This document shows positions 43,571 through 47,596 of a stretch of DNA of 64,000 nucleotides, in pieces. A program made the translations under genes and the position numbers. The first letter of the stretch is position 1. Each line of letters opens with the position of its first letter. The notes below the pieces were generated by a model. It was not told the origin of the DNA. It saw only the letters and a list, made by a program, of their open reading frames with translations, and searched no databases. This DNA is from Anaerovoracaceae bacterium (GTDB lineage: Bacteria; Bacillota; Clostridia; Peptostreptococcales; Anaerovoracaceae), in the NCBI GenBank assembly GCA_045604065.1, contig JAZUNH010000059.1, forward strand, positions 37,216 to 101,215. Direction: 5' to 3'.

Positions 43571-44518
43571 TTACAGAATAAACGGGGCGCCATGATCGGC
43601 GTCCTGTTTCAGGTATGGCTTTATCTTTTCTGCCAGCTTATCCGGTATCCTGCGGACGTTAAACTCATAGCCTTTATCACCCTCTAACCATCTTGTCCCT
43701 ACGAGGTAGTATTTACCGTCTCTTTTTGCGATCGTTATGCTGGCGTCCAGATTTCTATCATTGCTCATAATATCTACGTGGTATTCCCTGACACCTTCTT
43801 CTTTCCAGTCTTTATCACTGTTCAGCCATTCTGGAGTGACTGACTTTTTATGTCCGGTCTTTTTGAGCTCGTGGAAGATCTTCTGCCCTTCATCATCGAG
43901 TTTCCTGTCGTTTCGCATGAAGTAATAGTGGTCCAGATCATCGTAGTATTCAATGATCGCATCGAAGTCTTTCTTCTGACAGTAGAAGTATTCATCAAAA
44001 TTCATCAGTATCGGCATCCCTGTATCATTTTCAATGTAGAACATCTGGGACGAATAATCGGTGGCGGTGAGCCACTCGAGAGGAGTCAGGCGCTTTTTGA
44101 TGGTGAACGCGACGTTATCGTCGTACCATTTGTCGCTTCTGTCGTTCATGAACGTGTCCGTGTCAAAATCCATCCAGTCATTTCTGGTCTTCATCCAGAG
44201 GGACGTCCATTTTTCCCCTTCGAACGTGAAAGCCTGATTGTATCGGTCCCAGTAAACGGTGACGTCGGTAGGGTGCACGGATTCAGCGTGCAGTTCGATG
44301 ATCTCTTTATTATCGCTTCTTACGGCGACAAGAAATATTCCCATGAATACGAGAATGACAGCAATAGCTATTGCACGGGCTTTGTTCTTTCTGCTTATCT
44401 GGATCTTATCTTCGCTTTGTTTTCTGCCTGATCTGATCATCAGGAATACCAGCAGGCCGATCATGAGAAAAGCGATATGAGCAGCCACGTAAAAGAAAAA
44501 TGTCATTATGGTCATCAT
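43571..44518 (-). CDS. Hypothetical membrane-anchored protein (two N-terminal TMs), AT-rich
   Basis: 315-aa ORF filling the gap, two hydrophobic N-terminal segments, composition differing from flanking genes. Confidence 0.7.
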   Translation of the reverse strand: MMTIMTFFFYVAAHIAFLMIGLLVFLMIRSGRKQSEDKIQISRKNKARAIAIAVILVFMGIFLVAVRSDNKEIIELHAESVHPTDVTVYWDRYNQAFTFEGEKWTSLWMKTRNDWMDFDTDTFMNDRSDKWYDDNVAFTIKKRLTPLEWLTATDYSSQMFYIENDTGMPILMNFDEYFYCQKKDFDAIIEYYDDLDHYYFMRNDRKLDDEGQKIFHELKKTGHKKSVTPEWLNSDKDWKEEGVREYHVDIMSNDRNLDASITIAKRDGKYYLVGTRWLEGDKGYEFNVRRIPDKLAEKIKPYLKQDADHGAPFIL

Positions 44519-44611
44519 ATCAGTTCGCCTATATATAGTATAAATAATGATATAACATAATATTTAATATTACATTTAAAGAATAGTATTATATTTCTGA
44601 TTTGTCAAGAG

Positions 44612-44665
44612 ATAACCTACAGACGGTTGACATGTAGGTTATTGTAGGTTATGCTGATGTATAAT
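44612..44665 (+). promoter_or_regulatory. Sigma-A promoter with three copies of a 10-bp operator-like motif
   Basis: ATAACCTACA 44612-21, TGTAGGTTAT 44633-42, TGTAGGTTAT 44643-52; TTGACA 44627-32, N17, TATGCT 44650-55; TATAAT 44660-65. Confidence 0.75.
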
Positions 44666-44682
44666 AAAATGGAGGAGGACAG

Positions 44683-46026
44683 ATGGCGGAAGACAGGATC
44701 AGCGAGCTGAAAAAGAGAATAGAAGAGCTCCCTAAAGGCTACATTTCCCGGAAGGTCATATCAGGGAAAGAGCATCTGTATCTCCAGTGGAGAGACGGAA
44801 GCAATATAAGGAGCAGGTATATAAAGGAGTCGGAAAAGGAATCGTTCATCGCCGCTATAGAGGAAAGGAAAGCTCTGCAGGAGGAGCTTTCTGTTGCCGA
44901 AGGCAGGGTTGAATACAAGGCGGCTCCGAGATACTATCTCAAATGGGGCGACGATGTCGTAGGGGAGATCAGGAATGATCTCTGTGTTCAGTTCGTTTCT
45001 CCTGACCTGAATCAGACTGTAAAGGAATACGTGTCTGAGACAGGCATATGGAGCAGAGATGATCTTGTCGATTTTCTCAAGGACAGGATAGTAAGTCCAT
45101 ACAGGAGGGATATCGAGCAGATCCTCGCGAGACTTGGCCTTTCCTCATATGATGTAATTGATGTTGCGCTGGCAACGCATGCTGTGTCGGCAAAAGACAT
45201 GTTCTGGATCTCAGAGACCGCGGACGCACATTTCAGTGACGCAGTAACAGATGTTTTCGATTCGGTGTTCAGCCGCAGGGAGGATCTTACGGGAGACAGC
45301 GTTGATACTCCCGAGGGGGAGAATGTAAAGCGCTACGGAGTATACGATGGAAAGTACGGGATATATAAGAGGCGTCTCAGCCCGCTGACAACAGATATCG
45401 AGTCTGAGATCGCGGTCTATAGGCTTGCTGATCTTCTGGGCGTTCCGTGCTGCCCGTGTTTCAGAACAGATCAGGACACAGTTTTCTCTGAATTTGAATA
45501 TGACTTTTCAAAGGAGTTCATAATACACTTCAGACATATCTTAAAAAAGCAGAGCTCCGGAGACTACCTTATGGATCTGATATCAGCGCGTCCGGGGTAC
45601 CTTAAGGATCTTGCCCGGATGATCTGTCTTGATTTCATCACGAGGCAGGATGACCGGCACCTTTCCAACATAGCCGTAAAGATGTCAGAAGAACCCAGAG
45701 GATCAGAGGAGACGTTCTACCCGCTGTATGATAACGGGAGGAGCCTTTTCTATGAAGATACGGAAGAGACCGCGGCAAGCGCGGCGGATGACGTAGAAAA
45801 GTATGCAACTTCCTTTGGACCTTCCGGGTCATATCTTGACCATGTGCGGATTCTGTCTGACATGGGGATCAGTTTCGGCAGACTGATCGACCTTGACATC
45901 GATACGAAAAAGATAGAAGAAGTGCTTACGGACTCAGGCCTGACAGGATACAGACTGGAAGGCTCGATCAAATGGATAGCAGCGTGCCTGGATATCCTGA
46001 AGTCACTTGACAAAGATAAGCCCTGA
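44683..46026 (+). CDS. HipA-like (PI3K/PI4K-fold) kinase with extra N-terminal domain
   Basis: GGAGGAGG RBS; YK, ESEIAVY, LDFITRQDDRHLSNIAV (DRH..N) and PLYDNGRSL (DNG) kinase motifs; HipA-N-like middle region. Confidence 0.75.
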   Translation: MAEDRISELKKRIEELPKGYISRKVISGKEHLYLQWRDGSNIRSRYIKESEKESFIAAIEERKALQEELSVAEGRVEYKAAPRYYLKWGDDVVGEIRNDLCVQFVSPDLNQTVKEYVSETGIWSRDDLVDFLKDRIVSPYRRDIEQILARLGLSSYDVIDVALATHAVSAKDMFWISETADAHFSDAVTDVFDSVFSRREDLTGDSVDTPEGENVKRYGVYDGKYGIYKRRLSPLTTDIESEIAVYRLADLLGVPCCPCFRTDQDTVFSEFEYDFSKEFIIHFRHILKKQSSGDYLMDLISARPGYLKDLARMICLDFITRQDDRHLSNIAVKMSEEPRGSEETFYPLYDNGRSLFYEDTEETAASAADDVEKYATSFGPSGSYLDHVRILSDMGISFGRLIDLDIDTKKIEEVLTDSGLTGYRLEGSIKWIAACLDILKSLDKDKP

Positions 46027-46066
46027 GCGTACAATTTCAATAGTTGAAAGAAAGGCGGGAATCACT

Positions 46067-46210
46067 ATGGAAAGAATCAAGACACTGGAAACAAGAGATC
46101 TTAAAGCCAGCATGGAGAACGGCGGATGCGGCGAGTGCCAGACGTCATGCCAGTCAGCATGCAAGACATCATGCGGCGTTGCCAACCAGAAGTGCGAGAA
46201 AGATCAGTAA
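46067..46210 (+). CDS. scfA: Six-cysteine ranthipeptide SCIFF precursor
   Basis: MERIKTL...GGCGECQTSCQSACKTSCGVANQKCE matches the SCIFF signature. Confidence 0.97.
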   Translation: MERIKTLETRDLKASMENGGCGECQTSCQSACKTSCGVANQKCEKDQ

Positions 46211-47596
46211 ATGATACATCAGTACAAACTGAACGGATATAATATCGTTCTTGACGTTAACAGCGGGTCTGTACATTATGTGGATGATGTCTGCTATGAC
46301 ATCATCCGTTCTTTTTGTGACGCTGAAGAAGAAGGTAAGGAGCCTGACCTCGCCGCGGTCAAAGCCGATGTCATCAGCAGATATCCGGGCGAGACGGACG
46401 AATCGGTCGAAGCCGCTTTCCGCGACATAGATGAGCTGAAGAAGCAGGGGAAGCTGTTCACGCCTGACATCTATAAGCCTAAGGCGACGTACCTCAAGAA
46501 CAGGCACACGGAGATCAAAGCCCTCTGCCTTCACGTCGCTCATACGTGTAACCTGAACTGCGAGTACTGCTTCGCGAGCCAGGGCAAGTTCCACGGCGAG
46601 AGAGCTCTGATGAGCCTCGATACCGCAAAGCGCGCGATGGACTTCCTGATCGAGAACTCCGGGAATCACGTCAATCTCGAAGTCGACTTCTTCGGCGGCG
46701 AGCCTCTCATGAACTGGGACGTGGTAAAGGGGACGGTCGAATACGCCCGGTCCATAGAGAAGGAGCATCACAAGAATTTCCGCTTCACGCTCACGACCAA
46801 CGGAGTCGGGATAAACGACGAGGTCATCGACTTTGTGAACAGAGAGTGCCACAACGTTGTGCTGAGCCTCGACGGCAGGAAAGAGGTGCACGACGCGCTC
46901 CGCAAGACGATAACGGGCGAGGGAAGCTACGACATGATAGTGCCGAAGTTCCAGAAGCTCGTCAAGGCGCGCGGCGGGAAGAACTACTACATGAGAGGGA
47001 CCTTTACACACGCGAACGTGGATTTCACCAACGACATCTTCCACATGGCGGATCTCGGGTTCGACCAGCTCTCGATGGAGCCTGTCGTCTGCAGCCCGGA
47101 CGAGCCGTATGCCCTTACTGAAGAGGACAAGGAGAAGATATACGAGCAGTATGAGATCCTTGCGAAGGACATGCTGCGCCGTGAGAAAGAGGGACGTCCT
47201 ATCACCTTCTATCACTACATGATCGACCTTACCGCGGGGCCGTGTATCTACAAGAGGATATCCGGCTGCGGCTCCGGTACGGAATACTTCGCGGTGACGC
47301 CGTGGGGAGATCTTTATCCGTGCCACCAGTTCGTCGGGGAGACAAAGTTCAAAATGGGAGACATCTGGAACGGGATAGACAGGGAAGACATAAAAGAAGA
47401 GTTCAAGATGTGCAACGTGTACGCGCGTGAGGAGTGCAGGAAGTGCTGGGCGAGGCTATACTGCTCAGGAGGCTGCGCCGCGAACGCATATCACGGGACC
47501 GGTTCCGTAACGGGCGTGTACGAGTACGGATGCGATCTCTTCAGGAAGAGGATCGAGTGCGCGCTCATGATGAAAGTCGCGGAGGCTGAGCTATGA
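46211..47596 (+). CDS. scfB: SCIFF radical SAM/SPASM maturase
   Basis: MIHQYKLNGYNIVLD RRE-like start; CNLNCEYC; FFGGEPL; SPASM CGSG...GDLYPCHQF...C..CWARLYCSGGCAAN. Confidence 0.96.
   Translation: MIHQYKLNGYNIVLDVNSGSVHYVDDVCYDIIRSFCDAEEEGKEPDLAAVKADVISRYPGETDESVEAAFRDIDELKKQGKLFTPDIYKPKATYLKNRHTEIKALCLHVAHTCNLNCEYCFASQGKFHGERALMSLDTAKRAMDFLIENSGNHVNLEVDFFGGEPLMNWDVVKGTVEYARSIEKEHHKNFRFTLTTNGVGINDEVIDFVNRECHNVVLSLDGRKEVHDALRKTITGEGSYDMIVPKFQKLVKARGGKNYYMRGTFTHANVDFTNDIFHMADLGFDQLSMEPVVCSPDEPYALTEEDKEKIYEQYEILAKDMLRREKEGRPITFYHYMIDLTAGPCIYKRISGCGSGTEYFAVTPWGDLYPCHQFVGETKFKMGDIWNGIDREDIKEEFKMCNVYAREECRKCWARLYCSGGCAANAYHGTGSVTGVYEYGCDLFRKRIECALMMKVAEAEL

Follow-up and report, generated by a model that had tools for sequence, protein, structure and literature searches.

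Three identical 10-bp sites over the promoter of a single-gene HipA-like kinase, a probable autoregulatory operator for the kinase's own N-terminal domain

Three perfect copies of the 10-mer TGTAGGTTAT lie across the promoter of a gene for a predicted HipA-type kinase in the window, that is, in the whole stretch of 64,000 nucleotides analyzed here. The three sites are probably the autoregulatory operator of the kinase gene, read by the N-terminal domain of the kinase itself (referred to below as the head) so as to repress transcription. The preliminary description had inferred that the N-terminal domain of the kinase binds these sites, and every comparative prediction examined agrees with it. 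Strong support for autorepression by way of a new DNA-binding domain thus comes from sequence comparisons, which cover the operator and its promoter, the rarity of the motif, orthologous loci, sister kinases with a different head, and unrelated genes that share only the head.

The kinase gene is a monocistronic open reading frame of 447 amino acids with its ATG at 44683, and the 164-bp intergenic region before it holds no open reading frame of at least 40 amino acids. The order of elements within 44600-44665 is AG ATAACCTACA GACGGTTGACA TGTAGGTTAT TGTAGGTTAT GCTGATGTATAAT, and the individual features are listed in Table 1. A repeat search returned the tandem pair and both inverted pairs as 100% perfect, with inverted spacers of 11 nt and 21 nt. 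A promoter scan placed a plus-strand promoter (TTGACA, a 17-nt spacer, and TATGCT, with 10 of 12 consensus matches) in the middle of the repeats, such that O1 and O2 flank the -35 hexamer, the promoter spacer is taken up by O2 and O3, and O3 enters the -10 hexamer, ending 30 bp before the kinase gene. The preliminary description had reported three perfect 10-mers, an inverted repeat whose 11-bp spacer holds the TTGACA -35 box, and a third, tandem copy overlapping the -10 box TATGCT; all of these were found again, exact in position and sequence. Repeated sites that overlap the kinase's own promoter are the arrangement of hipBA-type operator autoregulation.

Table 1. Features of the kinase locus, in positions of the window
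Feature	Position	Strand	Basis or remark
Divergent promoter-like site, TTGACA (44608-03), 17 nt, TATTCT	44580..44608	-	would serve the membrane-protein gene 43571-44518
Operator site O1	44612..44621	-	TGTAGGTTAT on the minus strand (ATAACCTACA on the plus strand); inverted copy upstream of the -35
-35 hexamer TTGACA	44627..44632	+	promoter scan; within the O1-O2 spacer
Operator site O2	44633..44642	+	TGTAGGTTAT; abuts the -35
Operator site O3	44643..44652	+	TGTAGGTTAT; tandem to O2 with a 10-bp step; its final TAT is the start of the -10
-10 hexamer TATGCT	44650..44655	+	promoter scan; TATAAT in most orthologues
Ribosome-binding site GGAGGAGG	44671..44678	+	read from the sequence; 4 nt before the ATG
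N-terminal domain, residues 1-73 (proposed operator-binding head)	44683..44901	+	AlphaFold2 model, profile search
Flexible linker, residues 74-83	44902..44931	+	pLDDT below 50 at residues 74-78
HipA/CtkA-like Ser/Thr kinase core, residues 84-447	44932..46026	+	sub-cut-off Pfam matches, Foldseek, invariant motifs

The motif is rare outside this promoter. Matches in the window at no more than 1 mismatch numbered 6, whereas 1.23 +/- 1.05 were expected, and none of 100 shuffles reached that number. The genome searched (1.58 Mb, 93% complete) contains 4 exact copies, 3 of them at the kinase operator, compared with 3 for the control pattern, which is the motif read backwards. At no more than 1 mismatch, the genome has 37 sites versus 52 for the control, and the sole pairs within 45 bp are those of the kinase operator. 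Clusters of three copies of any 10-mer inside 60 bp number only about 8 in the genome, and most of these lie in apparently repetitive coding sequences. With 4 exact copies and only one paired cluster, the motif is thus a private element with a single target and not the site of a global regulator. A genome-wide occurrence as the site of a known global regulator had been named beforehand as an observation that would speak against binding of the sites by the kinase's own N-terminal domain, and no second paired site came to light at no more than 1 mismatch. The global-regulator assignment was rejected on the lack both of a single-site excess and of any other paired site in the genome at no more than 1 mismatch; a regulon at no more than 2 mismatches was rejected likewise, with 19 pairs versus 17 for the control pattern. 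Two other clustered repeats were seen in the same genome, outside the window: GTGACGGTTT occurs four times in about 65 bp on another contig (C64:6835-6900) and could be an operator, and TCTGCCTGCC occurs three times at C38:6671.

These counts bear on whether the repeats regulate anything at all. They would be non-regulatory if they had arisen by chance, were the relic of a mobile-element end or attachment site, or formed an RNA or terminator hairpin, and we regard this as highly improbable. Chance is excluded by the window and genome counts. Integrase arm-binding domains, which bind repeated arm sites of about 10 bp, are among the weak fold matches of the head, but no integrase or transposase lies nearby. 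Pairing of the inverted copies could give a 10-bp stem; however, that stem is AT-rich and has no T-tract, the sites are upstream of the predicted transcription start at about 44661-44663, and the scan of 44300-46300 found a single terminator-like site, located within the kinase gene on the minus strand. The register of the motif relative to the -35 and -10 hexamers is, moreover, conserved across orthologues.

The product of the gene is predicted from its AlphaFold2 model (pLDDT 84) to be a distant HipA-type kinase, with a core that starts near residue 84 (YYLKW). Foldseek matched the model to CtkA (3akl, E 3e-7, probability 1.0) and to HipA (4pu4, E 2.7e-5; 4pu4 and 3dnt, E 3e-5 to 1e-4, probability 1.0), which places the modeled core in the HipA/CtkA kinase fold. 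Sequence matches were fainter. Pfam HipA_C (PF07804) scored 18.1 bits against a curated cut-off of 30.5 (E 2.3e-3), and PI3_PI4_kinase scored 18.8 bits against 27.1 (E 1.6e-3), both below the cut-off; the PADLOC PDC-M03A models matched the catalytic region at E 1e-8, and the A1 profile had no match among PDB sequences at E <= 0.01. Neither the catalytic loop QDDRHLSN nor the YDNG motif varies in 29 homologues. They supply a D-x-H-x-x-N motif (D324-R-H326-L-S-N329) and a metal-binding Asp (Y349-D350-N351-G352), residues that we take to correspond to D309, H311, N314, and D332 of HipA. A scan of IMG/VR viral contigs returned no relatives of the kinase.

Upstream of the kinase is a divergent membrane-protein gene (43571-44518) whose product has no significant Pfam hit and no DNA-binding domain, and downstream are the genes for a SCIFF peptide and its radical-SAM maturase. 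It had been stated that no separate regulator gene is adjacent, and this agrees with the identity of these neighbors. Nor is there a separate antitoxin gene of the kind that defines type II toxin-antitoxin systems, with no partner gene conserved among the orthologous loci. The divergent promoter-like site has its -35 only 3 bp from O1, and occupancy of O1 might affect the membrane-protein gene too. Because the upstream gene at several orthologous loci lies on the same strand and is not divergent, we infer that any such co-regulation is incidental. On the other side of the kinase, directly after it, the six-cysteine SCIFF peptide (PF13165, E 1e-23) and the radical-SAM/SPASM maturase lie within 46007-47596; the peptide probably starts at an internal Met close to 46070. 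The final codons of the kinase coincide with part of a strong promoter-like site (TTGACA-17-TACAAT, 11 of 12 matches) at 46007-46035.

A database search returned over 1,000 relatives of the kinase, which fall into three N-terminal types: the window-type head, an HTH_17 head, and headless proteins. The window-type head, with the consensus LPKGYISxKxIxGKExxYLQWRxGxKxxSxYI, is carried by the closest 30 or so relatives. DNA from species-representative genomes and metagenome assemblies provided 12 further window-type loci, 11 of them distinct (the upstream region of L108 duplicates that of L008). At all 11, copies of the motif were recognizable and had the same arrangement. The layout consists of an inverted (A/G)TAACCTACA, then a TTGAnn -35, and then TGTAGGTTAT twice with a tandem step of 10-11 bp, the last copy ending in TATAAT, TATACT, or TATGAT. 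At least two near-perfect copies were found at 10 of the 11 other orthologues and, with the window included, at 11 of 12 dereplicated loci. Degenerate copies are confined to L111 and L112, the latter having only one copy within one mismatch of the consensus and thus falling short of two; these degenerate copies count against the proposed operator. Positions 3-8 (TAGGTT) are invariant among the 34 sites collected; the collection filter fixed positions 3-7 only, so constancy outside those positions is informative.

The orthologues are 45-58% identical over the N-terminal domain and at most 62% identical over the kinase core, and the DNA flanking the operator is unalignable. Where annotated, the neighboring genes differ and include priA-def-fmt/rsmB, STAS/CmpB, an SNF2 helicase, HAD/AddB, an HTH_3-HipA paralogue, and SCIFF. 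The spacer between O1 and O2 always holds the TTGAnn hexamer and is 6-12 nt long, or 20-21 nt in L111 and L112. A spacer this variable fits heads on flexible tethers and not a rigid dimer, and the 6-21 bp range counts against the proposed operator insofar as it needs a flexible or non-cooperative binding mode. A scan of JGI metagenomes for the 20-21-nt tandem TGTAGGTTAT(N)TGTAGGTTAT gave 21 contigs, mostly plain tandem arrays, and 0 of the 21 had an inverted upstream copy or a downstream open reading frame with the N-terminal domain. In one metagenome contig (L106:2375-3757), the orthologue is followed by a second HipA_C-like kinase with an Xre-type HTH_3 head, HipH-like in its makeup, so that two single-gene kinases with different heads stand side by side.

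Sister kinases in Clostridia provide a natural comparison. Their core is the same, with about 50-57% identity across 80-90% of the query, and they too are single genes, but their head is a MerR/excisionase-type helix-turn-helix, HTH_17 (PF12728), and their operator, although also around the -35, is CGGAAYAAT/ATTRTTCCG instead of TGTAGGTTAT. This head is found in many of the relatives listed and in 51 of 79 classified genome loci. The sisters (L009-L084) carry an inverted repeat, TCGGAAYAAT-n3-6-TTGAYATTRTTCCGA, around the -35 and then TATACT, at about 40-90 nt upstream of the start, a position equivalent to that of the window operator; no description of this operator was found in the literature searched. 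After removal of near-identical upstream regions, the loci were scored for motif A (at least two TGTAGGTTAT at no more than 1 mismatch) and motif B (a CGGAAYAAT inverted repeat around the -35). Loci with the window-type head had motif A in 11 of 12 cases and motif B in 0 of 12, with 1 of 12 having neither. HTH_17 loci had motif A in 0 of 42, motif B in 39 of 42, and neither in 3 of 42. Among the headless kinases, 0 of 22 had motif A, 3 of 22 had motif B, and 19 of 22 had neither.

In a maximum-likelihood tree of the cores, the kinases with the window-type head form one clade (support 98/98) that groups with the HTH_17 kinases L009, L018, and L028. Those three have an extra tandem copy of their own site, which gives the same layout of two tandem copies and one inverted copy. 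Because there is one clade and it groups with the three-copy HTH_17 kinases, a single replacement of the N-terminal domain appears to have coincided with a replacement of the operator, and within the kinase family the co-variation of domain and operator rests on that one swap event. We also observed that L058, L073, and L082 have lost the HTH_17 head and kept the CGGAAYAAT operator around the promoter. An operator can thus persist without a head encoded in cis, and a paralogue may act in trans on these orphaned operators.

These data are relevant to the idea that the operator is real and is bound by a dedicated but unlinked regulator, the head serving some other purpose, oligomerization or kinase inhibition, for example. 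We consider this quite unlikely. Such a regulator would need to accompany the kinase clade in about 10 genomic contexts unrelated to one another and to change whenever the head type changes, and there is no second paired site in the genome for it to act on. On the other hand, it could be encoded in an unassembled part of the 93% complete genome, and the three headless kinases do keep an operator without a head in cis.

We next turn to the head itself, a domain of about 75 residues. In the AlphaFold2 models it consists of a helix (residues 2-15), three strands (20-26, 29-38, and 41-47), and a second helix (49-72), at a pLDDT of 80-91; the model of the isolated head has a pLDDT of 84. Foldseek with the isolated head gave nothing significant against the PDB (best E 0.15) or against BFVD (best E 0.04), the weak matches including the arm-type integrase domains 3jtz (E 0.29, TM 0.31) and 3rmp (E 0.40) and the AP2 domain 6sy0 (E 0.80-0.97). 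A profile of 41 diverse heads retrieved from PDB sequences only spurious OspA beta-hairpin repeats. No helix-turn-helix family hit the head, whose model is helix-beta3-helix, and Pfam AP2 and Arm-DNA-bind_3 each matched one head member at E about 0.08. The lack of any significant structural or sequence match to a known DNA-binding fold counts against the head as a DNA-binding domain and, with no fold or sequence evidence to mark it as such, leaves some room for the unlinked regulator.

The sole recurrent Pfam family was DUF6788 (PF20586), which matched 27 of the 41 diverse heads below the cut-off (best E 3.5e-4) and is listed in precomputed annotations of orthologues. The matches align on the C-terminal half of the family model, and relatives reach about 20 bits at most. 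Membership in DUF6788 was rejected, every hit being below the 27.2-bit cut-off; the window's own head gave no hit to the family even at E <= 10, and the family model found nothing in the window's genome. Judged from these scores, the relationship would be distant at best. The literature searched contained no mention of DUF6788, and full-text searches (DUF6788, DUF3990, and HipA with HTH_17) returned no description of the head domain or of the kinase family.

The head is nevertheless widespread by its own profile. More than 1,200 clusters, defined at 50% identity, were represented among the matches (1,256 cluster representatives at E <= 1e-3 and 469 at E <= 1e-10), and among the 150 profile hits listed, the head is at or near the N terminus of proteins of 58-650 amino acids. 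It is carried by 34 of 399 genomes of the same class and is encoded once in the window's genome, in the kinase itself. Its fusion partners include AAA_14/STAND-type ATPases and proteins with AAA-ATPase_like and PDDEXK_9 domains.

The preliminary description had proposed looking for analogous repeats upstream of other genes with the same domain, and the search did uncover promoter-embedded repeats there. An exact repeat of at least 9 bp within 100 nt upstream was present at 20 of 29 head genes versus 10% of 150 control regions (Mann-Whitney p = 2e-8, a value inflated by relatedness among the loci). The sequence of the repeats tracks the class of the head as read from residues in strands 1-3. 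Heads with GY..YLQ(W/T/N)R go with TTAACCTACA/TGTAGGTTAA (L118, L119, L124, L126, L129, L146, and L148), and heads with GY..YHQWT go with ATAACCTAT/ATAGGTTAT (L115 and L116). Heads with GS..YHRxTRDG have GTTATACCC/GGGTATAAC, often as 2+2 copies (L127, L130, L133-135, L141, L142, and L150), those with GT..YLKYR have TACCCTACA/TGTAGGGTA (L131, L132, L136, L137, and L140), and the GN..YYQWT head of L128 has AAATAAGTTA three times. In addition, TACACAAC/GTTGTGTA repeats occur at L123 and L149, from two genomes. Paralogues of different classes within one genome (G045, G015, and G158) have different motifs. On a plasmid of Agathobacter rectalis, a cultured organism, the gene for an AAA family ATPase (WP_015515570, RefSeq) is preceded by GTTATAACCC ATTATAACCC, TTGATG, and GGGTTATAAT. 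For an unlinked regulator to explain these loci, similar repeats would have to have arisen in front of genes with nothing in common but the head.

More distant head proteins of about 500 amino acids, of the class GY..YHQW(S/T)E (L117, L120-L122, and L145), were observed to have upstream direct repeats of another kind (AAAGGGGTTAAAACGGGGTATAAT). One of them, L145, comes from a faecal contig found by tblastn of phage records, its phage label being unverified, and its kinase is 28% identical to that of the window and has an N-terminal domain of another class.

Several of the head genes belong to two-gene arrangements. Proteins of about 172 amino acids join the head to a VbhA-like segment (sub-threshold, E 1.5e-3) and overlap a following Fic gene (E 3.6e-15), and Fic modules with the head on the N terminus of a VbhA-like antitoxin were found at L118, L125, and L126. 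Stand-alone heads of about 90 amino acids overlap DUF3990 genes (E 1.6e-47) by ATGA, and others precede NADAR (1e-26) or NTP_transf_8 (1e-10) genes; the stand-alone loci of these three kinds are L123, L132, L137, L138, L124, and L143. The head here has the position of an antitoxin's DNA-binding domain, and the gene arrangement is that of two-gene conflict modules that regulate themselves.

N-terminal domains often serve as sensors in STAND/AAA_14 ATPases and in conflict-system kinases. The head, which also occurs fused to such ATPases, could bind its sites and yet switch on its own promoter, or anchor the kinase on DNA as a platform for sensing or activation. We hold this to be unlikely. Every locus has sites flanking the -35 and overlapping the promoter spacer and the -10, which is the classic position for steric repression, and the stand-alone heads of about 90 amino acids, which have no effector, show the same layout before toxin-like genes, as autorepressing antitoxins do.

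Autorepression by the head is the reading that we develop here, and it can be set out as a mechanism. The head (residues about 1-73) would be a sequence-specific DNA-binding module made of a basic helix, a three-stranded sheet, and a helix, flexibly tethered to the kinase core and binding one 10-bp site per domain. Recognition would probably be made by the sheet, in which residues co-vary with the site. Two heads would sit on O2 and O3, one helical turn apart, covering the promoter spacer and the -10, and a third would sit on the inverted O1, at the opposite edge of the -35. Their occupancy would exclude RNA polymerase, resulting in negative autoregulation: the gene would repress itself. Self-repression would keep a potentially toxic, growth-arresting HipA-like kinase low without a separate HipB-type antitoxin or repressor. 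Cognate repeated sites at the head's own promoter that co-vary with its putative recognition residues are what is expected of a repressor in general. Physical binding, its stoichiometry, repression rather than activation, and the toxicity of the kinase are what we infer from this pattern.

On a broader scale, we lean toward the view that there is a large, hitherto unrecognized family of beta-sheet DNA-binding domains, with the head as the founding member to which a function can be assigned, and that these domains act as a built-in autorepressor or antitoxin module of conflict systems, namely HipA-like kinases, AAA_14/STAND ATPases, Fic/VbhA, DUF3990 ADP-ribosyltransferase-like proteins, NADAR proteins, and nucleotidyltransferases. 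Each domain would bind one 9-10-bp site, with a few strand residues setting the specificity, and if this is true, cognate operators could therefore be predicted directly from genome sequence. The comparative data supply the domain together with its DNA target for about seven specificity classes, with the HTH_17 and headless sisters as natural swap controls. A DUF-like family would gain a testable function, for a head that has had no described function, solved relative, or literature, and operators could be predicted for many proteins of Clostridia and other gut and rumen anaerobes. The compact pair of domain and site could be dissected as a recognition code.

The regulatory logic is already known from other systems, being seen in HipB and proposed for HipH, and the DNA-binding module and its operator set appear to be undescribed. 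Tyrosine integrase arm-type domains and AP2 domains have a three-stranded sheet plus a helix and bind tandem sites of about 10 bp spaced by one turn. The integrase arm domains (HPI and P4) and a Plasmodium AP2 domain, which are among the weak hits, thus resemble the head in the sheet-plus-helix pattern and in their tandem sites of about 10 bp; however, they are without its extra N-terminal helix and long C-terminal helix, and the Foldseek matches (E 0.29-0.97, TM about 0.3) are non-significant. This likeness may be taken as a lead only. DUF6788, which recurs in head scans below the cut-off, is itself a family without a described function. The kinase core has its best structural counterpart in CtkA (JHP0940) of Helicobacter pylori (3akl, TM 0.57 on the target, 15% identity), but the solved CtkA chains, of about 280-296 residues, amount roughly to the kinase core alone and have no room for an equivalent of the N-terminal domain. 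We know of no operator for CtkA.

The preliminary description had compared the sites to those of hipBA, and this comparison stands in function, in that repeated sites lie over the promoter with the logic of negative autoregulation, and fails in makeup, as there is no separate antitoxin here. In hipBA (the Shewanella HipAB-operator structure, 4pu4), a separate helix-turn-helix antitoxin, HipB, binds palindromic operators, whereas the window has one inverted and two tandem 10-mers. The nearest precedent is HipH (YjjJ) of E. coli K-12, a Hip kinase from a monocistronic gene, whose N-terminal helix-turn-helix has been proposed to replace HipB (Gerdes et al. 2021, PMC8262856). HipH and the window kinase are both HipA-homologous, are each encoded by a single gene, and have no antitoxin gene next to them. 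The head of HipH, however, is a helix-turn-helix and that of the window kinase is helix-beta3-helix, and no operator is defined for HipH as far as is stated in PMC8262856. The core of the window kinase is also much more distant than that of HipH, with HipA_C below the cut-off and CtkA as the best structural match. The window gene is therefore HipH-like in outline and not a member of the HipH/YjjJ family (clade X), and it would broaden the range of single-gene Hip-type kinase systems past those families that were catalogued in 2021.
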